Shown piece after piece: positions 4,174-39,959 of a stretch of DNA of 42,031 bases; position 1 is the stretch's first letter, and each line of letters begins with the position of its first letter. The position numbers were made by a program, and so were the translations under genes. Source of the DNA: Escherichia phage vB_EcoS-Ro145clw; the sequence record MG852086.2. One strand, written 5' to 3'. Under the pieces are notes generated by a model that searched no databases, was not told the origin of the DNA, and saw nothing but the letters and a program-made list of their open reading frames with translations.

Positions 4174-4586
4174 TGGGCTACTTTGAGGACTTAACCAAAG
4201 CGTTTGATGTGCCGTTGGTGGCCTTCGGGACCGCAAACGGCATCAGGGTTGCGCTTGAAAATATCGACGCGCCGACGTCAACCGATACGCCGTATCTGGC
4301 GAGTTACATGTTGCTGGCAGATACGGAACAGGCGGATTTGTTCTTCACCGAGCAACGCTCAGGTGTTTATCAGGTCAACATTAACTACGCGTCGGTGAAA
4401 GGTAGCGCGCCAATCAATAAAATGGCAGACTTACTTAACACGGTGTTTAAAGCAGGTAAGTCATTTTCACGTAACGACATCTGCGCCGAGGTTCAATCAG
4501 TTAGCCTGGGGCCGCTGATTGTAGAAAACGGATGGGCCAAAAGACCATTGTCAATTAACTTTATTGCATTCACCAAGAGGCTGTGA
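4173..4586 (+). CDS. tail terminator/completion protein (putative)
   Basis: 137 aa; start ATG 4173 overlapping upstream stop; SD GAGGG; positional call immediately before major tail gene. Confidence 0.4.
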   Translation: MGYFEDLTKAFDVPLVAFGTANGIRVALENIDAPTSTDTPYLASYMLLADTEQADLFFTEQRSGVYQVNINYASVKGSAPINKMADLLNTVFKAGKSFSRNDICAEVQSVSLGPLIVENGWAKRPLSINFIAFTKRL

Positions 4587-4588
4587 AT

Positions 4589-5755
4589 ATGGCTACAACT
4601 CCTTTTAAGGGCGCGAATACCGCGCAATTCTATGTGGCGGAAGTGACCCCGGGCGTAACACCAAGTAACCCGGTATGGTCGCCGTTGCGTAGCACTGGCG
4701 GCGTTCCTGCCGTAACCCGCGATGCGCTGACTTCCAACGAACTGGACGGCAGCCGTGAAACTACATCCATCCGCACTGGCAATAAGCAGGTAAGCGGGGA
4801 GTATGCCATCGAACTTAGCTCTCGTAGTCAGGATGATTTCCTGGCTGGCGCGATGACTTCTACGTGGCAGGATGGGGTAGAGATTACGGGTGCCGAAATT
4901 ACTGTCGCCCCCGCAGGTAAAACATTCACCCGCGCTGCCGGTAGCTTCATTACTGACGGTGTAGAAGTTGGTGACCTTATTGCGTTCACCGACTTAACCG
5001 GCGACAACGCAAAACCGTTTATCGTGACCGCGGTTTCTGCTCTTGTAGTTACGGGTGCGGGCATTCAGCACACGCTGACAGCAGAGACTGTAACCACCGA
5101 CGCTAAAACTGGCGATAAACTGGAAACCGGTAACGCATGTAAGACGTTCTCCATCCTGACATGGTTCAAAGGACAGTGCGGGAACCCTGACGCGTACATG
5201 TTGACCAAAGGCGTGGAAATCTCCGGTTTCACCATTGAACAGGCCGTAAACGCGATGGTGACAGGCAGCTTCCCGTTCATCGGCCTGAGTCAGGAGATTC
5301 TTACCACGCCGCCGTCTGGCTCTGATTTCTCTCAGGTGACGTTCACGGACGAGCCGTTCTCTTCTGTAGATGTGTCTGTGTTCGACGGTTCTACGCCGTT
5401 GCGTTGCGATACTCTCACTATCACCAACGATAACGGTGCTTCCGCGCAGTTCGAACTCGGCAACAGTAGCGTCGCGTTCGTGGAACGGGGGCGCGCAGCT
5501 AACACCTTTTCCATCTCCGGTAAGCTGTACGACATGACGATGATTCAGAAGTTTATCAACGAGCAGCAGGTAGAGATTAACTCTATTCTGGCGGGGGTAA
5601 ACGGGGCTATGTCTTTCAGTTTGAAACGTGCGGAACTTACGGCGGTTACGCCTGAGATTGGCGGACCTGAGTCAATCACCCAGAGCATAGAAGGACAGTC
5701 CACAGGCAATCAATATCAATCTTCTATTGTAATACAGCGTATTAGCTACGCGTAA
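4589..5755 (+). CDS. major tail (tube) protein (putative)
   Basis: 388 aa from ATG 4589 with SD AAGAGG 8 nt upstream; Thr/Ser/Gly-rich; position between completion proteins and chaperones. Confidence 0.55.
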   Translation: MATTPFKGANTAQFYVAEVTPGVTPSNPVWSPLRSTGGVPAVTRDALTSNELDGSRETTSIRTGNKQVSGEYAIELSSRSQDDFLAGAMTSTWQDGVEITGAEITVAPAGKTFTRAAGSFITDGVEVGDLIAFTDLTGDNAKPFIVTAVSALVVTGAGIQHTLTAETVTTDAKTGDKLETGNACKTFSILTWFKGQCGNPDAYMLTKGVEISGFTIEQAVNAMVTGSFPFIGLSQEILTTPPSGSDFSQVTFTDEPFSSVDVSVFDGSTPLRCDTLTITNDNGASAQFELGNSSVAFVERGRAANTFSISGKLYDMTMIQKFINEQQVEINSILAGVNGAMSFSLKRAELTAVTPEIGGPESITQSIEGQSTGNQYQSSIVIQRISYA

Positions 5756-5759
5756 GTAA

Positions 5760-5779
5760 AAGGCCCCGAAAGGGGCCTT
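5760..5779 (-). terminator. GC hairpin AAGGCCCC GAAA GGGGCCTT, terminator oriented for the minus strand
   Basis: Perfect 8 bp stem; A-run on plus strand just before it gives a U-tract on the minus strand after HNH gene 5781..6275. Confidence 0.5.
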
Positions 5780-5780
5780 A

Positions 5781-6275
5781 CTATTTACCGTGGTTCTCGT
5801 GGAACCCCAAATCTCTTTCAGCAACTCTCCTCGCGGCAACTGCATCTAGTATCGTCTTAAAGCACCCGATATGTGTTTTTACGTTATTGTTGAATATCTG
5901 CGCGTACCACAACCTTTCTTTCGCGTTCCAGTAGACTCCGGTTACTCCTGATTTATTATTACGCTGTTTTGACATATTTTTATGGTTTTCCGCATTGGAC
6001 TTTTTAGCTAAGTTAAGCGGTCTATTGTTTATTCGGTCATGGTCTAGATGGTCTATTTGATCTGACGAGGTTAGCTTATTGTTAGGATTGTTTAAGTCCC
6101 AAGCTATACGGTGCGCCGCATGCCATTTACCCCGGAAAAATATCCTTCTATATCCGTCTCGCTGGACGGTACCTGCTTCCTCTCCAGCCTTAGCCCTCCC
6201 GGACCGGGTTACTCTGTTAAATATCCTTCCTGAAATTAAGTCGTATATGAAAAATTCATTCCAATCCATAATCAT
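5781..6275 (-). CDS. HNH homing endonuclease with AP2-type DNA-binding domain
   Basis: 164 aa; HNH core GKWHAAHRIAWDL...IDHLDHDRINNRPLNL; AP2-like SGVTGVYWNAKERLWYAQI; AT-rich; SD AGGAG. Confidence 0.8.
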   Translation of the reverse strand: MIMDWNEFFIYDLISGRIFNRVTRSGRAKAGEEAGTVQRDGYRRIFFRGKWHAAHRIAWDLNNPNNKLTSSDQIDHLDHDRINNRPLNLAKKSNAENHKNMSKQRNNKSGVTGVYWNAKERLWYAQIFNNNVKTHIGCFKTILDAVAARRVAERDLGFHENHGK

Positions 6276-6288
6276 CTCCTATTGTGAT

Positions 6289-6311
6289 AAGGCCCCGAAA
6301 GGGGCCTTTTT
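6289..6311 (+). terminator. second copy of the identical hairpin AAGGCCCCGAAAGGGGCCTT followed by T5 (plus-oriented terminator)
   Basis: 20/20 identity with 5760..5779; followed by TTTTT on the plus strand. Confidence 0.5.
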
Positions 6312-6312
6312 C

Positions 6313-6543
6313 TTACTCATCAATATTACTCCTGTACTCCCGTAACTTCTCCAGACTCTCAATTGCTTCCGCTAAGTCGGTTCCTGTGTCCTTGTGCCCC
6401 CGCAAGCCCATACACAATAGCTTCTTCAATGCGTGCTGTAACGCCGGGTCGCGGATGTCGAAGGCACGTAGCACGTCGTAAACGTCTACTGTCATAGTGC
6501 TGCCGTGAGTGTTTGTCATTGTGCGGTTGTATTTTGAAGTCAT
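6313..6543 (-). CDS. hypothetical protein (76 aa)
   Basis: SD GGGGAG upstream on the minus strand; preferred over the overlapping 6359..6550 frame. Confidence 0.4.
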   Translation of the reverse strand: MTSKYNRTMTNTHGSTMTVDVYDVLRAFDIRDPALQHALKKLLCMGLRGHKDTGTDLAEAIESLEKLREYRSNIDE

Positions 6544-6556
6544 AAATCAATCTCCC

Positions 6557-7027
6557 CTACTCATGGTTTTCATGAAAACCGTATTTACTCTCGGCGGCTT
6601 TACGCGCGGCAACCGCTACATCAAAATCGTCGTAAAGCCCTAAATGCACTTGTTTGTAGTTAACTTTTATAAACGCGCGCCACTTACCCGCGGCTTTGTG
6701 GAAACTTACACCTGTAGCCCCGGATTTATTTATCTTTCTCATAGTTTTATTTTTACTGTCCCCTGTATTGTCGGTGGCGCGTAGATTTTCTATTCTATTG
6801 TCTAGCCTGTTATGGTTTATGTGGTCTATTTGAGTTTTCCTGTCTAAGTCGCATTTATTATAAAGACACCATGCTATGCGGTGGACATACACTGTTTTAC
6901 CACCCATACCGCAGCACAGATAGCCTCTTACACCAACCGTACCAACCTCAGCACCAGTAGATATCCTGGTAACCTGCCCCGTCTCAGGGCAGTATTTAAA
7001 TTGTTTTGAAACATCAAGATACTTCAT
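6557..7027 (-). CDS. HNH homing endonuclease with AP2-type DNA-binding domain (paralog of 5781..6275)
   Basis: 156 aa; HNH core HRIAWCLYN...IDHINHNRLDNRIENL; AP2-like SGATGVSFHKAAGKWRAFI; shares C-terminal GFHENH with the other HNH. Confidence 0.8.
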   Translation of the reverse strand: MKYLDVSKQFKYCPETGQVTRISTGAEVGTVGVRGYLCCGMGGKTVYVHRIAWCLYNKCDLDRKTQIDHINHNRLDNRIENLRATDNTGDSKNKTMRKINKSGATGVSFHKAAGKWRAFIKVNYKQVHLGLYDDFDVAVAARKAAESKYGFHENHE

Positions 7028-8154
7028 CTTAGCATCTCCGGTGAGATTGAAAGCCTACCTACTTCCCCGAACTCTGAACTATAGGTTATGACATTAGCGG
7101 ACCTCTTAGACATCCACCCGCCGCGAGAAGCATATGCATCTTTCGCCGCGAGAGTGCGATGTTGTTCCACTACCATATTCCTACTTTCTACAATCTTTTG
7201 ATGGTGGAGATGCCCGACATGTGCGTAACTGTACTCGCTTTCGCCAAATGCTTTTCTGAACTTAGCTATCATAATGGGTTCGACCACCTCAAACCGGCAT
7301 TTATGCCCGTGTGTAAAGAACAGTGTCGTTTTACCGTGTTGCACCATCTTGTAAACATCCGGCGACGTATCGACGAACACACGCGGCTCATTGTCGTACA
7401 GCGTACTGAACATCTCAGCCAACCAAATCATTCCGCTTTCGTCGTGGTTCCCTTGCACGATAAGCAAGCGAACATTTTTATGCTTAACCAGCGCCATACC
7501 AACAACACGGCGTACCATACGAATCATGTAGCGGACTAGTTTCTGGTAGCGCGTGTCCGCATCAAGAACATGACCGCTCGCTGGCGTAACGGCATCCAGA
7601 CTATCGAAGTGTGCGAAGTCCCCGAGCAGATTAATGACTCCTGTTCCTGCATCTGGCGCTTTCTGGAATGCCGCATCGAACCATCGGGAGAACAGGTCTT
7701 CAGCAATCTTCATATCCCAGTCGTCGCCGCTCTCGTCGGCCCAGGCCAGCATGCCGAGATGGAAATCAGATACCGTGTAAAGATTGAGTAGTTTGTCGTC
7801 ACGTTTGGCTCGAGTCGCTTTAACAGGCGCAACTGGGGTAATCTCTGACTTCATGCCTTCAACCACGGCTTTCATCAACTCAACCTGACGTTCGGCATCG
7901 GTGTCGGTCTTAACCCATTGCAACTTAGTGTTGCCGAACTCGTCTACCAGTGACGACGTTCCTTTAATCTTGTAGCCGTCTGGCACAAGGTGACTAACAT
8001 CACGACCATGACCTACGCCTTTCTTCGCCAGCTTCGCTTTACGGATACGAATAACGCGGTCTGAGATGCCGTATTTACGGGCAATGTCGATATTCTTCAT
8101 CCCGACGTTCAATTCTTCCTGTAACTGTTCGTCGGTTATTTTCTTCTGGGCCAT
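7024..8154 (-). CDS. N-terminal HTH domain fused to calcineurin-like metallophosphoesterase
   Basis: 376 aa; HTH-like IDIARKYGISDRVIRIRKAKL; MPP motifs SDFHLG, GDFAHFD, QGNHDES, THGH, HVGHLHH in canonical order; SD GAGGAAG. Confidence 0.65.
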   Translation of the reverse strand: MAQKKITDEQLQEELNVGMKNIDIARKYGISDRVIRIRKAKLAKKGVGHGRDVSHLVPDGYKIKGTSSLVDEFGNTKLQWVKTDTDAERQVELMKAVVEGMKSEITPVAPVKATRAKRDDKLLNLYTVSDFHLGMLAWADESGDDWDMKIAEDLFSRWFDAAFQKAPDAGTGVINLLGDFAHFDSLDAVTPASGHVLDADTRYQKLVRYMIRMVRRVVGMALVKHKNVRLLIVQGNHDESGMIWLAEMFSTLYDNEPRVFVDTSPDVYKMVQHGKTTLFFTHGHKCRFEVVEPIMIAKFRKAFGESEYSYAHVGHLHHQKIVESRNMVVEQHRTLAAKDAYASRGGWMSKRSANVITYSSEFGEVGRLSISPEMLR

Positions 8155-8192
8155 GCTTACTTCCTCGTGTTTAGGATTTGTCCTATACTAGC

Positions 8193-8384
8193 TCACTTCT
8201 CGTTAACATTCGAGTTGCACGCCCAGATTAAAATAAATACCCACGGCAGCAGAACCCAACCAAGAAACAGGTTAGCCATGAATATCGCCAACTTCGCTTT
8301 ATGGTTACGGAAATATGCAACCAGGAAAGGCGCGAAATAAGCGAGCAGTGCAAACAGAATTAAGGAAACTGGTAAACTTGACAT
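8193..8384 (-). CDS. small membrane protein, superinfection-immunity (Imm)-like family (putative)
   Basis: 63 aa from the second ATG (SD AAGGGG); two hydrophobic segments; YFAPFLVAYFRNHK...NLFLGWVLLPW resembles the Imm-type superinfection immunity family as remembered. Confidence 0.45.
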   Translation of the reverse strand: MSSLPVSLILFALLAYFAPFLVAYFRNHKAKLAIFMANLFLGWVLLPWVFILIWACNSNVNEK

Positions 8385-8414
8385 TTTAAACCCCTTCATT
8401 GTTGGTGTAAGTGA

Positions 8415-8443
8415 ATAGTACCCTATTATATTGGGGTGTGCAA
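8415..8443 (-). promoter_or_regulatory. sigma70-like promoter TTGCAC-N17-TACTAT with embedded AATAG-N4-CTATT inverted repeat (site A)
   Basis: Minus strand reads TTGCACACCCCAATATAATAGGGTACTATTCACTT; nearly identical to sites at 29385, 30614 and 40699. Confidence 0.5.
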
Positions 8444-8551
8444 GTAATGTGATAGAATAATTTTGCGCCTAGTGTCGCACACGAAAAGCGGGTGGTTCCC
8501 GTCTGGCGCATTTATCGATAACCTGTAACCTCTTAACCAAAGGATTAAAGA

Positions 8552-8971
8552 ATGAAACTTTCTGATTTTTATTTCGAAGAGAAAGCACTGGTAGGCAAGA
8601 AAATGCCGATTCTGCTGCCGAATGGCGAAGACTCCGGCGAGTGGCTTAATGTTGTAAGCCCTGATGCGGATGCCGCCGTTAAAGCGGGGCGTGCTTTCAT
8701 TATCGCGTACCGTCGCGGACTGGCGCGTTTTGAAGAACTGGAAAAAACCGCTAAAGCCTCCGGCGACTATACAGAATATAACCTGGCGATTAATGAACTG
8801 GCGGAAGACCTCAACCGGCAACTCGCGGCTGAAGTCGTAAACGGCTGGAGCTTCGACGACGAGCCTTTCTCTAAGGAAGCGTTTAACAAATTGCTCGACC
8901 AGTTCAAAGGGCTTGGAACCCAGGTAGCCGCGTTCCATAACGCTGAGCGCAAAGCATTACAGGAAAAGTAG
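8552..8971 (+). CDS. tail assembly chaperone (gpG-like, putative)
   Basis: 139 aa acidic ORF with SD AAGGA immediately upstream of the tape-measure gene; followed by a -1 frame overlapping ORF. Confidence 0.5.
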   Translation: MKLSDFYFEEKALVGKKMPILLPNGEDSGEWLNVVSPDADAAVKAGRAFIIAYRRGLARFEELEKTAKASGDYTEYNLAINELAEDLNRQLAAEVVNGWSFDDEPFSKEAFNKLLDQFKGLGTQVAAFHNAERKALQEK

Positions 8972-9336
8972 ACGCGCTGTACAGGTTCGCCACCTACGAG
9001 TTTGTGGATAAGCATAAAATCAGAGAGTTTGATTCTATAGCTGACGGACATGAACAGGCGCTTATCGCGATGGGTGTAATCGATAAGAAAAAACGTGCAG
9101 CGCGACGGGGTGGGCCAGAATGTCCGCCCCTTTTCATATCCACCTTTGAGACGTATTGCGACATTAAGTTTACGCGACACGTGCGCGAGGACGCTGTAGT
9201 ATTGTTTGCAAGAGAATCCGTTACGTGGCAAGACCTGAAAGCCTATCTCGACGTTACACAAAAACAGCTTAGCCTGTTCGAGATAGACATTATCATGGGC
9301 TTAGAAGCAATCTTTGAAGGTAGAAACCATGGCTGA
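8947..9336 (+). CDS. -1 frame extension ORF (gpT-like; candidate G-T frameshift product)
   Basis: Frame -1 relative to 8552..8971 is open from 8947 to TGA at 9334..9336; overlaps the last 8 codons of the chaperone gene; candidate slip region AGGAAAAG at 8961..8968; independent GTG at 9004 also possible. Confidence 0.4.
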   Translation, partial: AQSITGKVDALYRFATYEFVDKHKIREFDSIADGHEQALIAMGVIDKKKRAARRGGPECPPLFISTFETYCDIKFTRHVREDAVVLFARESVTWQDLKAYLDVTQKQLSLFEIDIIMGLEAIFEGRNHG

Positions 9337-11599
9337 TATCGCTAGCTTGATAGTACGAGTATCCGCAACCGGCGTCGATAAAGTCACATCACAACTGAAC
9401 GGGCTTACTAAAGCCGCAGGCGCTGCGGCTGCCGCCGTTGTCAGCCTGGAAACCGCTAAGCAGGTGTTCAGTGCGCTGGTGGACTCCCAGCGAAACTTCG
9501 ATAAGCTGAACTCCGGCCTCATCACAATGACCGGGAGTGCTGAGAACGCGGCTAAGGCTTTCAGCGTCCTGCAACAGTTCGCGAAAGAAACCCCGTACGG
9601 CCTCAACCAGGCGGTGGAAGGCTTTACTAAACTTGTAGCCCTCGGCCTGAACCCCAGCAAAGAGGCGTTAATCTCCTACGGCAACACCGCCGCTGCGATG
9701 GGTAAAGACCTTAATCAGATGATTGAGGCCGTGGCGGACGCCAGTACATTTGAATTTGAGCGACTGAAAGAGTTCGGTATTAAGTCTTCCCAACAGGCAG
9801 ATACCGTTTCGTTCACGTTCCGCGGCGTAACGACCACAGTTAAGAAGAACTCCGAAGAAATTCAGAAATACCTGCTAAACATCGGTAACACTGATTTCGC
9901 CGGGGCGATGGAAACGCGTTCGAAAACCCTTGACGGGCAGTTATCTAGCCTCGCGGACTCCTTTGACGGCCTTGTACTTGCGGTGGCGCAATCAGGTTTC
10001 GGCGACGCCGTAGGTGAGCAAGCTGCGACAGCGGAAGATGCCATCACGGCCCTAACCGATGCCATCGCGTCTAATGAGATAGCAGCCACGCTCCAGGATT
10101 GGGTGACACTGTTCAATGAATCGTTCAAGTTTATTTCTGACGCTTTGAACGATCTGGCATACGACACCGAGGACAAATCCGTGGATATGTCCGACTCGCT
10201 GGGGACTATCCCGGACGCTATTCGTGAGTGGTTGCCTGACATTCAGCAGACATTCCACGAGGTTATTGCGTGGTTCCAGCGCATTGACGATTACGCGGTC
10301 GCGTTAGGCCAGACCCTCGCCGACGTGTTCGACCCGAGCAAAACGGCAGCGCTAACATTTAAAAACCTGACCGCAGAGGCCGACGCCGCATACGCCGCCA
10401 GCATAAAACGCGCAGAGGCCGAATCACAGGCTATCACCAACAGGTCTAAGCAGCGTAAGAAAGAAATTGAGGAACAGCGCAAGCAGTATGACGAGCGCAA
10501 GAAGCAAGAAATTGACTTAGCCAGCCTTGTTAATAAAAAGAGCGGAAATGGTGGAACCGGAAATACCAACGACAAAGACGCGAAAGCCGCCGCTAAGAAA
10601 GCGGAGCAATTGCGTAAACAGGCCCAGGATTATCTCGACACTTTGGCCCGTCAGAACAACGACGAATTAAAGGCTATTGACGCACAGGAACAGCAGAAAC
10701 TGGCTAAGGCAAAAGAGTTCTACAACCAGGGCGCGTTGGCTCTGAAAGAATACGAGCAAGCAAAAACGGCTATCGTCCTCGAAGCCGGACAAGCACGGCA
10801 GGAAGAGCTGGATAAGCGAGAGAAAGAACGGCAGGAAAAGCAGCAGAAAGGTGAAGACTTCATGGCTCAGATTATGGGTCAGAATGCCGCCGAGCTTGAG
10901 CTTCTGGAAATTCAGGAACAACAAAAACTGGACGTTGCGGACCGATACCGCGAACAGAACCTTATTAATGAGGAGCAGTACCAGGCTGCGGTTAATGCCA
11001 TAAATGACCAATATGCTTTGAAGCGCGCCAACGCTACAGGTAACGCTTTCGGGATGATGGCGGATAACATGAAGGCCTCACTAGGGGAGGCGTCGTCCGC
11101 GTACAAAGCATTCGCTATTGCTCAGGCCACAATCGCCACATACACCTCCGCTATTGAGGCTTATAAATCAGCGTCCGCTATCCCCGTGATTGGCTGGGTT
11201 ATGGGGCCAATTGCCGCCGCCGCCGCCGTAGCCGCCGGTATGGCTAACATAGGTAAGATTCGTTCGGCTCGTGAACAGGGTGGTCAATTATCCGCGGGCC
11301 AGATGTCCACCATCGCTGAACGCGGTAAACCGGAGGTTATCATGCCTGCGGGGGCATCGCGTGTGCGCACCGCGCAGCAGATGAAAGAGATTATGGGGCA
11401 AAACGGCGGAAACTCCGGCGGTGACAGCGTGACAATTGTCAACAACACCACCGGGCGAGTTGATTCTGCGGTAACAGAACGTGATGACGAAGGGCGTTTA
11501 CGTATTATAATCAGTGAAACAGTATCGGCGGCGTTACAGGACAGCAACAGCGCAATCTCTAAGTCACGCCGTGCTACACGAAACCAGCCGGGGTATTAA
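9329..11599 (+). CDS. tail tape measure protein
   Basis: 756 aa from ATG 9329 (SD GAAGG); long coiled-coil middle with repeated EQQKL segments; C-terminal hydrophobic Ala/Gly-rich segment; follows chaperone pair. Confidence 0.8.
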   Translation: MADIASLIVRVSATGVDKVTSQLNGLTKAAGAAAAAVVSLETAKQVFSALVDSQRNFDKLNSGLITMTGSAENAAKAFSVLQQFAKETPYGLNQAVEGFTKLVALGLNPSKEALISYGNTAAAMGKDLNQMIEAVADASTFEFERLKEFGIKSSQQADTVSFTFRGVTTTVKKNSEEIQKYLLNIGNTDFAGAMETRSKTLDGQLSSLADSFDGLVLAVAQSGFGDAVGEQAATAEDAITALTDAIASNEIAATLQDWVTLFNESFKFISDALNDLAYDTEDKSVDMSDSLGTIPDAIREWLPDIQQTFHEVIAWFQRIDDYAVALGQTLADVFDPSKTAALTFKNLTAEADAAYAASIKRAEAESQAITNRSKQRKKEIEEQRKQYDERKKQEIDLASLVNKKSGNGGTGNTNDKDAKAAAKKAEQLRKQAQDYLDTLARQNNDELKAIDAQEQQKLAKAKEFYNQGALALKEYEQAKTAIVLEAGQARQEELDKREKERQEKQQKGEDFMAQIMGQNAAELELLEIQEQQKLDVADRYREQNLINEEQYQAAVNAINDQYALKRANATGNAFGMMADNMKASLGEASSAYKAFAIAQATIATYTSAIEAYKSASAIPVIGWVMGPIAAAAAVAAGMANIGKIRSAREQGGQLSAGQMSTIAERGKPEVIMPAGASRVRTAQQMKEIMGQNGGNSGGDSVTIVNNTTGRVDSAVTERDDEGRLRIIISETVSAALQDSNSAISKSRRATRNQPGY

Positions 11600-11602
11600 A
11601 CT

Positions 11603-12097
11603 ATGTCTTCTTTAAGGTTCCCAATGTCCCTTCGGCCAATAGTGTCGAAGGGGTACTCCCAAACGCGAGGGAGTAATATCTGGCGTACAGAAGTTCAGGG
11701 TGGCGTACCTCGCCAGGGGCGTGATACATACTTTGAACCGGTGCCGATTAGCGTTACCCTGGTCGTATCGTCACTAGGCCGCCAGGCTTTCTATAGCTTC
11801 CTGAATAACATAGACGGCGGTGCGTCGTCGTTCATCATGCCCCACGACACCGGGTTAGGTATCGAAGACCACCAGGTGCTTATTACGTCAGACATTAGTG
11901 ACAGTACTGATGACGGTAAGAACTGGGTTATTACGTTCACAGCAACAGCAGAACGCACTGCGATTCAGGAAGACACATGTCTTACGAAGAATCTTCCTGA
12001 TTTGTTCGGTTGCTATGGTGATTGTTTAGGAGGGTTCCTCAAAGCATACGGAACCGCGCAATCAACGTTTCCACGAATTTGGGACCCGATGCAATGA
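11603..12097 (+). CDS. minor tail protein, lambda gpM-like
   Basis: 164 aa; GYSQ...SVTLV...FLNNIDGG resembles lambda gpM (GYSQR...SVTLSV...FLEEHGG); follows tape measure. Confidence 0.55.
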   Translation: MSSLRFPMSLRPIVSKGYSQTRGSNIWRTEVQGGVPRQGRDTYFEPVPISVTLVVSSLGRQAFYSFLNNIDGGASSFIMPHDTGLGIEDHQVLITSDISDSTDDGKNWVITFTATAERTAIQEDTCLTKNLPDLFGCYGDCLGGFLKAYGTAQSTFPRIWDPMQ

Positions 12098-12609: not shown

Positions 12610-12971
12610 ACATTAATTCTTATACTGGTCTTCCGTATGATTTTCGCCGCCGTAATTGCTGGCACCATGTGTGTAACGTTCGCGCGGACGCGGGGCTCCC
12701 CACGCCCGAGTTTAACGTCGCTTCGCCAACACAGATTAATGATGCCTTTGAAGAAGGCCATAAAGACACTAAAGGCCTCGTACACGTAGAAACTCCGCAA
12801 AACTTCGATGTCGTTCTGATGGCAACGCGACACAGAAACCGTGTAATCTGGCACGCTGGCGTATATTATGGTGGTATGGTCAGTCATTGCGAGCTAGCTA
12901 GTCGCCAGGTACGGTTAGACCGACTGGAAGACTTGCGCGAAACTTATGCGGAGATAGAATTTTGGCGCTGA
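12606..12971 (+). CDS. small NlpC/P60-like cysteine peptidase-domain tail protein (gpK-like, putative)
   Basis: 121 aa; ATGA overlap; conserved Cys (RRRNCWHHV) and downstream His (VIWHAGVYY, MVSHCE) spaced like NlpC/P60 catalytic residues. Confidence 0.45.
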   Translation: MNINSYTGLPYDFRRRNCWHHVCNVRADAGLPTPEFNVASPTQINDAFEEGHKDTKGLVHVETPQNFDVVLMATRHRNRVIWHAGVYYGGMVSHCELASRQVRLDRLEDLRETYAEIEFWR

Positions 12972-15517
12972 TATTACACTACACCCGTAACGAAGACGGT
13001 ACTTTCGACCGCAAACGGTACAACGTACCGCCGATGGAATACGTCGTTGCTAACATCCCTGACGGGGTGCCGGTACGTATTTACCGGGGCGAGATTGGCG
13101 AGGATACGGAAGTAACGGAAGATTTCGAAGCGCTGAAAGAAGACGACGTATTCCATATTATCGAAGGTGCTGGTGGCGGTGGCGGTTTTCTCGGAAAACT
13201 GCTTGACCCATTGGGTGTGCTTAAGTTTATCACTAAACTGATTTCCCCGTCGCAGAAAACGCCTAAAACTAGTTTAGCTAACCAGCAGGCGGAGTCGCCA
13301 AACAACAACCTGACGGACCGAAACAATAAACCTCGCCCGTATGAGCGGTCGTATGATATTTGCGGCAGGGTACAGACTATCCCTAATGACCTCATGACTA
13401 CCTATAAAATATTCGATGAATCCGGCCGAATTATCGAGTATGGATACTACGACGCCGGTCGAGGTTACCTGGATATCAAAGCAGAAGACATTACTGACGG
13501 CGATACTAAAGTACAGGAGATTACAGGTACATCTGTCGCGGTGTATGCGCCGTTTACATCGCCTAACAATACAAATACTCCTCAGCTTCTGGTGGGGGAA
13601 CCTATCAATCAGAATCTTTATATAACTATCGCTTCTAATGAAGTAGACGGAGCCGTTCTTAAAGCCCGTAACGATATAAGGGTTAACCCTAGCGACACGG
13701 GCCGTGTGAGATATGACTCTGCTACAAAAATTGGATACCTGTATGATGGCACGGGGGATTCTGGCTTCGCGGAAATATTATCTGTTGGCGATACCGCGTC
13801 GTTCAATAACTTTGACGTTCCGGACGTAACAAATACCAACGGCAACTTTCGTGTTCTTTATGTCGATAACTTCGAGCTGCGGGTCGACACCGGCGGCGCG
13901 TCTAACTGGGCTGCTTTAGGTTCAACCACCTATTCACTTTCCCCGAGAAGTGACACGTGGGTGGGCCCTGTGAATACGTATGAAAGAACATTAACCGACT
14001 GGACCACCTTAAACCGCCTGGAAGTTGAACGAGTAGTTGCTAACATTGCCGCCGCGAATGGCATGTACAAGGACAACGGCAGTAAATTGCGCACCGCTGT
14101 AACTGTAGAGCTTCAATATCAGCTACTAGATGAATCCGGGGCACCGTACGGAAGCATTTACTCGAAACAGGCCACTATATCCGGGCGGTCCGCAGATTAC
14201 ACCGGGGTCACCATTTACGCCGACCTGCCCGTGCGGTCGAAAGTCAGGGTACGCGCCCGGCGTGTTACCAACCTGGACCTCGATTTCGAGGGCACCGTGG
14301 TAGACGAGGTTTCCTACATCAACCTTTACGGGCAGGTCCGCGACACTACGCCGCATTACGGCAACCGTACTACTGTACACTCTGCACGTAAGCAGACGCC
14401 GCGGGCCGCAGAGATTAAGCAGCCGCAGCTACGTATGGTCGCGACGGAGATGGTGTACAAATACCTCGGCAACGGCGTATTTGACGCGGTTATGACACCT
14501 AATACCCAAGCCGTTCAGTCGTTAATACGCCTGGCGCGGGACCCAGTAGTAGGAAACCTCAATCTCACCACGGCTAACATGGATAAGTTGTTGGCTACGC
14601 AAGCAGAGATTGAAAATTATTTCGGAAATGCTGAGGCTGGGCAGTTCTGCTACACATTCGATGATTACAAAACGACTATGCAGGACATCATCAGCACAAT
14701 AGCTGATGCTATTTTCTGCACGCCATATCGTAAAGGGCAAGACATATTACTGGATTTCGAGCGCCCTCGTATGGGGCCGGAGATGGTATTCACCCACCGC
14801 AGTAAAACAACGGCATCCGAGAGGTGGACTAGGACATTCAACGACGCTCAGGTATACGATAGTCTTAAGTTCTCCTACATCGACCCAGATACCAACGTAA
14901 AAGAGACTATTAGCATTCCAGCCGAAGGTGGTGTTAATACCGAAACGTATGACTCCAAGGGTATACGTAATTATCGCCAGGCGTACTGGGCGGCGTACCG
15001 CCGCTACCAGAAAAACCTGTTGAAGAAGGTAACGGTATCATTCACGGCGACAGAAGAAGGGATTTTTGCAATGCCTGGGCGTGCGGTAAGTGTGGTAAAA
15101 GGTTCGCGTATGGCTCCACAAGACGGCTATGTAATCGCCGTTAACGGGCTTACGCTTACTCTTTCTCGGCCGGTCGCGTTTACTCCTGGGGATGACCACT
15201 CACTGATTCTTAAGAAGCGAGACGGGGGAGTTCAAAGTGTTGCCGTTGTGCCTGGAAGCCACGACCGTGAAGTGGTTATGCTATCCGCGCCGCAGGAGGC
15301 AATTTACACGGGGAATAGCGCACTAAAAACTGAGTTTTCATTCGGCAACGAAGCAAGGCATAATGCTCAGATGATTCTTGTTTCTACAGTTGACCCCGGA
15401 GATGACAGAACAGTTAAGATTACCGGGATTAACTATGAAGCAGATTTCTATAAATACGACGGCGTCGCGCCTTTCGGTCGCGGTTTCTCCGACGGATTCA
15501 GCAACGGTTTTAGTTAA
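12962..15517 (+). CDS. tail tip / host-specificity protein with gpI-like N-terminal region
   Basis: 851 aa, TTG start with SD GGAGA; N-terminus (VRIYRGEIG...GAGGGGGFLGKLL...) resembles lambda gpI-type assembly domain; large C-terminal body; position before tailspike. Confidence 0.55.
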   Translation: MALILHYTRNEDGTFDRKRYNVPPMEYVVANIPDGVPVRIYRGEIGEDTEVTEDFEALKEDDVFHIIEGAGGGGGFLGKLLDPLGVLKFITKLISPSQKTPKTSLANQQAESPNNNLTDRNNKPRPYERSYDICGRVQTIPNDLMTTYKIFDESGRIIEYGYYDAGRGYLDIKAEDITDGDTKVQEITGTSVAVYAPFTSPNNTNTPQLLVGEPINQNLYITIASNEVDGAVLKARNDIRVNPSDTGRVRYDSATKIGYLYDGTGDSGFAEILSVGDTASFNNFDVPDVTNTNGNFRVLYVDNFELRVDTGGASNWAALGSTTYSLSPRSDTWVGPVNTYERTLTDWTTLNRLEVERVVANIAAANGMYKDNGSKLRTAVTVELQYQLLDESGAPYGSIYSKQATISGRSADYTGVTIYADLPVRSKVRVRARRVTNLDLDFEGTVVDEVSYINLYGQVRDTTPHYGNRTTVHSARKQTPRAAEIKQPQLRMVATEMVYKYLGNGVFDAVMTPNTQAVQSLIRLARDPVVGNLNLTTANMDKLLATQAEIENYFGNAEAGQFCYTFDDYKTTMQDIISTIADAIFCTPYRKGQDILLDFERPRMGPEMVFTHRSKTTASERWTRTFNDAQVYDSLKFSYIDPDTNVKETISIPAEGGVNTETYDSKGIRNYRQAYWAAYRRYQKNLLKKVTVSFTATEEGIFAMPGRAVSVVKGSRMAPQDGYVIAVNGLTLTLSRPVAFTPGDDHSLILKKRDGGVQSVAVVPGSHDREVVMLSAPQEAIYTGNSALKTEFSFGNEARHNAQMILVSTVDPGDDRTVKITGINYEADFYKYDGVAPFGRGFSDGFSNGFS

Positions 15518-25083: not shown

Positions 25084-25351
25084 TCCGTACCTCCCACTGG
25101 TCAATTAAATGCCGCGTCTGGTGCTGGCAGTGCATAGCCCACCCATACATCGACTCGAAGACATAAAAGTCAGGTTTGGCGAAGGTCGTTCGCTTAATCT
25201 GCGACACGCGGCGACCTATATCTTTAGGGCGCGGTACTTTGCCTAAGTACGCCATCTCTTCCATCCGGTGCGCACCTGACGGCGCACGCAACAGCCACAA
25301 CGCCTCTGTGTTATCCCGCCTGTCGATGGCGCGGTAGAGTTGGTAAATCAT
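25055..25351 (-). CDS. hypothetical protein (98 aa)
   Basis: SD GAGGT 9 nt upstream; overlaps exonuclease start by about 29 nt. Confidence 0.4.
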   Translation of the reverse strand: MIYQLYRAIDRRDNTEALWLLRAPSGAHRMEEMAYLGKVPRPKDIGRRVSQIKRTTFAKPDFYVFESMYGWAMHCQHQTRHLIDQWEVRNDFKRTRRQ

Positions 25352-38907: not shown

Positions 38908-39959
38908 GCAAGCTATCGCAGATGATTATCAGCCATCAAATATGGCTACAGAGACTAGGAACGCAAACAGCGTCGCTGTCCGTCCCCTTCGTCAATAAGA
39001 TGCGTGCGGAGGTGCGCGACGCGGTGCTTAAGTTCGGTGACGACGCGCGCACAGTGAAGAAGCTGAATAAAATGCTGACAAGCCTGGATGGCGTGCTGGA
39101 TGACGTCACCGGCGATTGGAAGAGCACGATAGAGAAGAGCCTTCGCGAGATTGCCGACTACGAGAATAAGTGGTTTATCCATACGCTGGAGGCCAACACG
39201 AAGCCGAAAACGTTTATTACCGGACCTACGGCAGAAGAACTGTGGTCGCGTATCAAGTTCGCACCACTGGCGATGGGTAACTCACCTGTCGGCGTTATGG
39301 ACCTGATGTCAGGCTGGGCGCAGACCGAGCGTAACCGCCTTGTGCGCGGCGTACAGACCGGCTTTGTGCAGGGGCAGACAACCCACCAAATTGTCTCTGC
39401 CGTTGTGGGCCCCGGTGGCCTGGCCGATATATCTGAGCGCAACGTAATGACGGTAGTCCGAACAGCAGTGAGTCACGTATCGAACACGGCGCGAGACTCT
39501 GTGTACGACAGCAACAGCGATATTGTGAGCAAATATCAGTGGGTATCTACGCTCGACAGCCGTACTTCGACTGTATGTAAGTCGCGCGACGGCCAGAAAT
39601 ATGACATAGGTAGAGGGCCGATGCCCCCCGCCCATCCGAACTGCCGCAGTACCACTATCCCGGTAATCGAAGATGACTTCCTGGACTTTCTCGACGAGGG
39701 GGCTAAGCGGGCGGCTAAGGGTGCGGACGGCGGTACTCAGGTAAGCGCAGACACCACCTATTACGAGTTCCTGAAGCAACAACCGGCATGGTTTCAGGAC
39801 CAGGCGCTCGGCCCTGTTCGCGGTAAGATTTTCCGCGGCAGCGGTATATCGCCGGAAGAGTTTCGCGTAATATCTGTAGATGGTTTCGGGAATCCGCTCA
39901 CGCTTAAGCAGATGGCGGAACTCGATAAACGTGTTGCTGATTATCTGAAAGGGGAATAA
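38904..39959 (+). CDS. head morphogenesis protein (Mu F / SPP1 gp7-like)
   Basis: 351 aa; QWVSTLDSRTSTVCKSRDGQKY resembles the conserved Mu-F core; ATGA overlap with portal. Confidence 0.6.
   Translation: MSKLSQMIISHQIWLQRLGTQTASLSVPFVNKMRAEVRDAVLKFGDDARTVKKLNKMLTSLDGVLDDVTGDWKSTIEKSLREIADYENKWFIHTLEANTKPKTFITGPTAEELWSRIKFAPLAMGNSPVGVMDLMSGWAQTERNRLVRGVQTGFVQGQTTHQIVSAVVGPGGLADISERNVMTVVRTAVSHVSNTARDSVYDSNSDIVSKYQWVSTLDSRTSTVCKSRDGQKYDIGRGPMPPAHPNCRSTTIPVIEDDFLDFLDEGAKRAAKGADGGTQVSADTTYYEFLKQQPAWFQDQALGPVRGKIFRGSGISPEEFRVISVDGFGNPLTLKQMAELDKRVADYLKGE

Follow-up and report, generated by a model that had tools for sequence, protein, structure and literature searches.

A helix-turn-helix metallophosphoesterase of the T1 gp16 family, encoded antisense to the tail genes of Escherichia phage vB_EcoS-Ro145clw, as a candidate DNA-directed nuclease

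The window, that is, the whole stretch of DNA analysed here, comprises 42,031 nucleotides of Escherichia phage vB_EcoS-Ro145clw (sequence record MG852086.2). Between the plus-strand tail tube gene and the plus-strand tail chaperone and tape-measure genes lies an island of minus-strand genes (Table 1), the second of which encodes a protein in which a helix-turn-helix (HTH) domain precedes a calcineurin-like metallophosphoesterase (MPE) domain. The first gene of the island, upstream of the MPE gene and co-oriented with it, encodes a small membrane protein. Window positions 5700-9400 are 100% identical to MH051334.1 (Escherichia phage vB_EcoS-Ro145c2YLVW; Guernseyvirinae, Kagunavirus), where the MPE gene is Ro145c2YLVW_00041 (AVZ45595.1) and carries the label 'hypothetical protein'. 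It is nearly certain that the gene product belongs to the T1 gp16 family as an active HTH-MPE.

Table 1. Features of the MPE protein, the antisense island and its flanks (window coordinates; aa, amino acids; pLDDT, predicted local distance difference test)
Feature	Position	Strand	Details
HTH-MPE gene	7024..8154	-	ATG start, 376 aa + stop; from the open reading frame list
Three-helix HTH domain	8017..8154	-	aa 1-46; helices 8-16, 21-28, 32-44
Beta-hairpin and long helix between HTH and catalytic domain	7840..7974	-	aa 61-105; pLDDT ~90
Calcineurin-like MPE domain	7027..7800	-	aa 119-376
Motif I, SDFHLG	7753..7770	-	aa 129-134; D130, H132 invariant
Motif II, GDFAHFD	7603..7623	-	aa 178-184; G178, D179 invariant; H182, D184 at least 90%
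Motif III, QGNHDES	7435..7455	-	aa 234-240; N236, H237 invariant
Motif IV, THGH	7303..7314	-	aa 281-284; H282 invariant
Motif V, HVGHLHH	7201..7221	-	aa 312-318; G314, H317 invariant; H315 at least 90%
Imm-family superinfection-immunity small membrane protein	8193..8399	-	PF14373 E 9.3e-13; PHROG 1039 E 1.1e-22
Sigma-70-like promoter of the island (putative)	8415..8443	-	-35 TTGCAC 8443..8438; 17-nt spacer; -10 TACTAT 8420..8415
HNH-AP2 homing endonuclease gene	6557..7027	-	Pfam HNH_3 E 8.5e-10; PHROG 99
76-aa gene, after MPE in Guernseyvirinae	6313..6543	-	PHROG 2452 E 2.4e-36; synteny in pink, KE16
GC hairpin	6289..6308		between 76-aa gene and second HNH gene
Second HNH gene	5781..6275	-	
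Tail tube gene	4583..5755	+	
Tape-measure gene	9314..	+	

A preliminary description of this DNA had read five MPE motifs in canonical order from the open reading frame, and every motif string it quoted was located, in that order. Together they make up the full, ordered superfamily set DxH, GD, GNH(D/E), H and GHxH. In an alignment of 133 homologues (31-50% identity; Met1 is absent, which lowers the alignment numbering by one), nine residues are invariant in all 133 sequences (Table 1). These residues sit in the five motifs, which would form a two-metal centre, suggesting that the family consists of active hydrolases. The predicted structure is the alpha/beta sandwich of the calcineurin-like metallophosphoesterase superfamily; the nearest fold neighbours of the model are Mre11, SbcD and DP1, and its structure matches in BFVD are uncharacterised phage MPEs throughout. 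The Pfam models remained below their cut-offs, with 25.6 bits for Metallophos_2 (gathering 27) and 19.4 for Metallophos (gathering 21.5), and relatives likewise scored below threshold. In the Pfam and structure check proposed in the preliminary description, profile detection fell short, and the fold was supported by motifs and predicted structure. We give the latter two more weight than the Pfam miss and regard the family as divergent. A phmmer search of the PDB with the protein returned no match even at E 10, the family profile found GerE (E 0.031), Mre11 and SbcD there as marginal matches only (all E > 0.03), and an NCBIfam scan gave nothing meaningful.

The HTH-like string quoted earlier from the region ahead of the catalytic part falls at residues 22-42, inside a predicted three-helix HTH fold. 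The segment is basic (isoelectric point 10.1), and its tri-helical fold is of the resolvase, LuxR-GerE or sigma region 4 type. The protein itself matches Pfam GerE weakly (E 0.033), and its relatives have weak matches to GerE, Sigma70_r4_2, HTH_23 and HTH_24; a single relative, P0133, passes Pfam cut-offs (HTH_11, Sigma70_r4, HTH_24). In each of the 133 aligned homologues, motif I is preceded by 99-168 residues, and the consensus of this N-terminal part shows an HTH pattern (..G.S..AA..LG..). Between the HTH and the catalytic domain, the beta-hairpin and long helix form a family-specific module, in which G74 and W80 are nearly invariant among the 133 homologues; the 12 closest of them all have K82. 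No structural analogue of this module was found, the best matches to a 117-residue N-terminal model spanning about 45 residues, namely the HTH.

Residues 3-375 match PHROG 704 over profile positions 1-389 of 390 (E 1.7e-164); the label of this PHROG, 'DNA repair exonuclease', is an annotation and not a tested function. Over the full length, the protein is 46% identical to T1 gp16 (ST16, YP_003929.1) and, with two gaps, 47% identical to Bas01_0050 of the BASEL phage Bas1 (QXV76181.1), whose orthology we verified. Relatives were detected by tblastn in 2,038 of 50,697 phage records, 1,957 of which cover at least 80% of the query. They include Kagunavirus, Jerseyvirus, Dhillonvirus, T1-like Drexlerviridae and Klebsiella Webervirus-type phages, as well as phages of Vibrio, Flavobacterium and the Roseobacter group. 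A HMMER search of 1.84 billion cluster representatives yielded 4,647 relatives at E<=1e-3, which are 50%-identity clusters in metagenomes, and 1,151 at E<=1e-30. Bacterial species genomes contain 77 loci that encode the family, mostly in Proteobacteria, and the one examined in detail is a lambdoid prophage. A 2026 paper counted the gene as persistent in 508/522 Drexlerviridae (PMC13164509). Depositors have named close relatives 'metallophosphoesterase', 'calcineurin-like phosphoesterase', 'winged helix-turn-helix domain-containing protein' and 'DNA repair exonuclease'. The joining of HTH and MPE that the preliminary description had picked out is thus real but not special, being the standard architecture of the common PHROG 704/T1 gp16 family, and the gene is an ordinary Kagunavirus orthologue of a widespread phage enzyme. 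Public databases already hold both the sequence and the family under much the same domain annotation, and hundreds of genomes have the family annotated.

Some alleles of the gene are recorded in pieces. PHROGs 20703 and 20762 are separate families that cover two sections of the protein, its N-terminal half (aa 1-195) and a C-terminal portion (aa 260-374), and some records annotate two coding sequences over the gene (JK06 JK_64P; RDJL Phi 1 gp04/gp05). Split or truncated alleles seem to circulate, a pattern that would be in keeping with a gene that is dispensable and selected against by some defences.

The reading of the first island gene as an Imm-like neighbour agrees with its Pfam and PHROG matches (Table 1). 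Ahead of it lies a putative sigma-70-like promoter, and the scan found an overlapping ATCACA-N17-TATAAT site at the same place. Promoter-like sites are no more numerous in the island region than in shuffled sequences, so conservation is the sole argument for the promoter: in two Jerseyvirus genomes, the TTGCA-N17-TAyTAT hexamers and their spacing are kept while the flanks have diverged. Further upstream, at about 8465..8510 (minus strand), the block CAG(A/G)CGGGAACCACCCGCTTTTC...GTGCGAC..TAG.CGC is almost invariant between Kagunavirus and Jerseyvirus. It lies in the divergent region between the Imm and tail chaperone genes, contains on the minus strand a short GC hairpin with a T run after it, and may act as an insulating terminator or as a site of regulation.

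At the other end of the MPE gene, the ATG of the HNH-AP2 gene overlaps the MPE stop codon (ATGA). This insertion is variable: it shows up as gaps in megablast coverage and is absent from many relatives, including Salmonella phage pink. Jerseyvirus keeps the core order of small gene, MPE gene and 76-aa gene, and HNH genes come and go. In phage pink, the 76-aa gene and the MPE gene overlap directly. The 76-aa product has no Pfam match and aligns to the C-terminal third only of larger profiles (phrog_2452, positions 150-220 of 235; phrog_17613, 'ATPase', 172-237 of 246); a role as partner of the MPE protein, or as its regulator, is possible. An HNH(-AP2) gene stands immediately 3' of the MPE gene in four separate lineages, namely this Kagunavirus, T1, Bas1/AKS96 and Jerseyvirus KE16. 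Copies beside MPE genes in other genomes lie at 42028-42510 (L005), 39208-39693 (L009), 7203-7694 (L003) and 5171-5671 (L008), and in the present phage a second copy follows 280 bp beyond the first. The MPE gene may therefore be a recurrent homing target or landing site.

The gene occupies different positions in other phages. In Drexlerviridae it closes a helicase/methylase operon, just before the holin-endolysin-spanin genes, and a terminator is annotated after it in T1 and AKS96. In Dhillonvirus (L007) it follows the lysis genes (lysozyme) and precedes TerS. In the Pseudomonas lambdoid prophage it follows the recombination genes NinB and NinG/Rap and precedes the holin gene, a site roughly equivalent to the NinI/Q position of the lambda map. 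A census of 49 bacterial-genome loci, with three genes on each side and a crude gene caller, revealed no universal neighbour. In roughly one locus out of three the upstream genes encode endolysin, spanin or holin, and in three loci NinG; downstream genes include integrases, nucleoside deoxyribosyltransferase, deoxynucleoside monophosphate phosphatase, pyrophosphatases and HNH genes. A lysis cassette is thus a recurrent neighbour, in Drexlerviridae, Dhillonvirus and about one in three of the bacterial-genome loci (L011-L087); Guernseyvirinae do not show this adjacency.

An orthologue of this very common gene has recently been tied to a phenotype, in a February 2026 preprint on the DRT7/UG10 reverse transcriptases. 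Four Bas1 escapers of DRT7 were isolated, and Bas1 evades the system through missense or frameshift mutations in Bas01_0050 (bioRxiv 10.64898/2026.02.16.706125). Bas01_0050 was toxic in E. coli, which made co-expression with DRT7 impossible, and lambda escapers of DRT7 had lost gam, the RecBCD inhibitor (same preprint). It follows that Bas1 can form plaques without a working copy of the orthologue, that the orthologue harms the cell and that DRT7 needs it in order to act. Two analogues are also informative. The pre-early T5 protein A1 is predicted to be a metallophosphatase, with features in common with double-strand-break-repair nucleases and with the proofreading subunits of polymerases. Host DNA degradation requires A1, and A1 alone suffices for it (bioRxiv 10.64898/2026.04.02.716235). 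The mycobacteriophage protein A10ZJ24 Gp48 is an early, toxic phosphodiesterase that damages host genomic DNA and counters defence (PMC12287305). Protection against the T1-like phage Bas12 comes from a defence system that responds to m6-dAMP set free when host DNA is degraded, consistent with host-DNA breakdown by T1-like phages. Our literature search found no functional study of the Kagunavirus phosphoesterase, of T1 host DNA degradation or of T1 gp16.

Combining this published evidence on toxicity, dispensability, DRT7 escape and host-DNA degradation with our own on the reading frame, motifs and their invariance, predicted MPE and HTH folds, family membership, synteny and conserved promoter, we propose that the MPE protein may well be a DNA-tethered phosphodiesterase or nuclease that attacks host DNA and is dispensable for plaque formation; we regard this proposal as evenly poised between right and wrong. 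The substrate is probably DNA. The choice of the host chromosome as main target is more tentative, and we would sooner doubt this part than rely on it. In the proposed mechanism, host RNA polymerase would transcribe the Imm-like and MPE genes from the sigma-70-like promoter, antisense to the tail operon and presumably early. The HTH, perhaps together with the hairpin-helix module, would keep the enzyme on duplex DNA, and the two-metal centre (D130/H132, D179, N236/H237, H282, H315/H317) would cleave DNA phosphodiester bonds, mainly in the host chromosome or in DNA ends made from it. Cutting would stop the expression of host genes, those for defence included, and may supply nucleotide salvage; the enzyme, toxic alone, would produce a cellular state that DRT7 reads as its cue. 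A DNA-tethered nuclease would account for the toxicity, the dispensability, the gam parallel in DRT7 escape, the occasional nucleotide-salvage neighbours and the fold. The preliminary description had left the choice between a DNA-targeted nuclease or phosphodiesterase and a signalling-nucleotide hydrolase; the former is the half that we favour.

The same fold neighbours also speak for the alternative that survives best, in which an Mre11-like 'DNA repair exonuclease' works on the phage's own DNA ends or on replication and recombination intermediates; we consider this rather unlikely. The phage has plausible associates for such an enzyme in a Gp2.5-like single-stranded-DNA-binding/annealing protein and a PHROG 69 exonuclease, which belong, with a helicase, Pol I and a helicase-primase, to a replication module on the same strand as the MPE gene. 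This module is distant from the MPE gene, however, which has its own promoter and sits in the tail cluster beside the Imm gene. Elsewhere, the company kept by the gene is more suggestive of DNA repair, as it ends the helicase/methylase operon of the Drexlerviridae replication region and follows recombination genes in the lambdoid prophage. The parallel with lambda gam also points to DNA-end metabolism. Against this reading, expression of the orthologue by itself is toxic to E. coli, and Bas1 can do without it. Moreover, the protein has no capping domain and no Rad50/SbcC partner: none is annotated among the 71 features of MH051334.1.

Less likely still, indeed improbable, is a small-molecule phosphodiesterase that acts on cyclic (oligo)nucleotide signals, Ap4A, NAD-derived signals or (deoxy)nucleoside triphosphate derivatives in counter-defence or metabolism, with the HTH as a regulatory or localising add-on. 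This is the other half of the earlier choice. A family-wide HTH-type N-terminal consensus is hard to explain for a soluble ligand, and hydrolysis of a signal would not be expected to make the protein so strongly toxic in E. coli K-12. The protein matched no PADLOC defence or counter-defence family at E up to 1, and loss of the gene lets a phage escape a defence instead of sensitising it.

A role in RNA-end healing would make the protein a 2',3'-cyclic phosphodiesterase/3'-phosphatase, like the calcineurin-type domain of bacterial Pnkp, that acts with a polynucleotide kinase to repair tRNAs cut by anticodon nucleases. Where the SH3 gene is lacking, as in Webervirus-type Klebsiella phages among others, the MPE gene is most often followed by a polynucleotide kinase gene, and T1 also encodes pnk. 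Such adjacency is limited to a subset of the family, and neither polynucleotide kinase nor RNA ligase is annotated in MH051334.1, where most genes are 'hypothetical'. With DNA nucleases as nearest folds, an HTH that fits duplex DNA and the toxicity left unexplained, we regard this role as very unlikely.

Marginally weaker again, and likewise very unlikely, is a transcription regulator (a late or lysis activator, or an autorepressor) with a sensory or accessory phosphoesterase, or its variant, a Ser/Thr protein phosphatase like lambda NinI: the HTH of sigma-region-4/LuxR type and the recurrent lysis-gene neighbours, among them the positions directly upstream of holin-endolysin-spanin in 508 of 522 Drexlerviridae and between NinG and holin in the prophage, would suit it, but frameshift mutants are viable, the catalytic residues are invariant and the PPP motifs are missing. 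Two further candidates were rejected outright. Lysis-cassette adjacency had suggested an essential late-gene activator, which the viable Bas1 frameshift mutants rule out; the site in the tail cluster had suggested a tail or virion protein, which is ruled out by the opposite strand, the separate promoter and the other positions in other families.

Some observations concern the record and the flanking tail genes. Relative to MH051334.1 the window is circularly permuted, its position 1 corresponding to record position ~11930. Near window position ~13230 (record ~25160-25283), 114 bp (38 codons, in frame) are missing just upstream of the tail-fibre gene, giving a single 851-aa open reading frame (12962..15517) in the window versus two coding sequences in MH051334.1. 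A few 30-mers near window positions 11701, 13161, 14381 and 16241 have no match in that record. Beyond the island, the tail assembly chaperone gene (8552..8971, plus strand; PHROG 15027) is followed by a short open reading frame (9004..9336, plus strand) before the tape-measure gene, the usual layout for a programmed frameshift product.

Returning to the proposed DNA-tethered nuclease, its extension to the whole family is our most speculative step and is on balance unlikely: the HTH-MPE family would be the host-chromosome-degrading nuclease of T1-like, Dhillonvirus and Guernseyvirinae siphophages, and the DNA damage or ends it makes would activate DRT7 and, perhaps, cue other damage-sensing defences too. 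Its T1 member might also be what is altered in the classical T1 mutants that fail to break down host DNA. A host-DNA nuclease of small siphophages would explain host shutdown by T1-like and Kagunavirus phages, why damage-sensing defences see these phages and why a knockout evades such defences; it would also bear on the choice or engineering of therapeutic phages from these groups.

In comparison with known systems, the window protein is a member of the family of T1 gp16, Bas01_0050 and PHROG 704, with which it shares length, architecture and invariant residues, including the N-terminal HTH and hairpin-helix module ahead of the MPE domain. In its presumed mode of action it most resembles nucleases of the Mre11/SbcD/DP1 type and T5 A1. 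The position of the gene differs, at an operon end in Drexlerviridae and in an antisense island with an Imm gene in Guernseyvirinae. Like lambda NinI, the lambda protein phosphatase of the PPP family, the protein is a phage enzyme of the calcineurin-like superfamily, but the GDxHG / GDxVDRG / GNHE signature and the PPP fold of NinI-type phosphatases are not found in it. The MPEs of cluster A mycobacteriophages (A10ZJ24 Gp48, Bxb1 gp47) also have the five motifs. In contrast, they are about 255 aa long with motif I at residue 10, and hence have neither HTH nor N-terminal module; specific homology to Bxb1 gp47-type MPEs was rejected at an hhalign probability of 10%, which indicates likeness at the superfamily level only. 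With Mre11 and SbcD, the predicted model shares the nuclease-domain fold and the two-metal site, at only 12-17% identity to Mre11, SbcD and archaeal PolD DP1. It ends 58 residues past motif V, with core strands and short helices where a capping domain would follow, and in place of an OB fold and a Rad50/SbcC or DP2 partner it has the N-terminal HTH and hairpin-helix. Without capping domain and partner, the MPE protein is not a member of the Mre11/SbcD family.

T5 A1 is likewise a phage protein of metallophosphatase type, with the same fold neighbours as those found here. It differs in its 556 aa, its large extra N-terminal region and its additional roles in second-step DNA transfer. Specific homology was rejected: hhalign gave 15% for the family profile against A1 and 17% for profile against profile, the latter in the HTH region only, and no significant profile similarity extends beyond motif III and the HTH. 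Many A1 relatives of ~530 aa (P0343, P0345-P0347, P0349, P0373, P0385) have a Pfam HTH domain (HTH_23, HTH_38, HTH_7 or CENP-B_N) in place of the A1 N-terminus, and several lie on ~45-kb contigs. The family of the host-DNA-degradation factor thus also occurs as an HTH-MPE fusion. By analogy, if the host-nuclease reading is right, the HTH-MPE family would be a one-protein functional counterpart of T5 A1.

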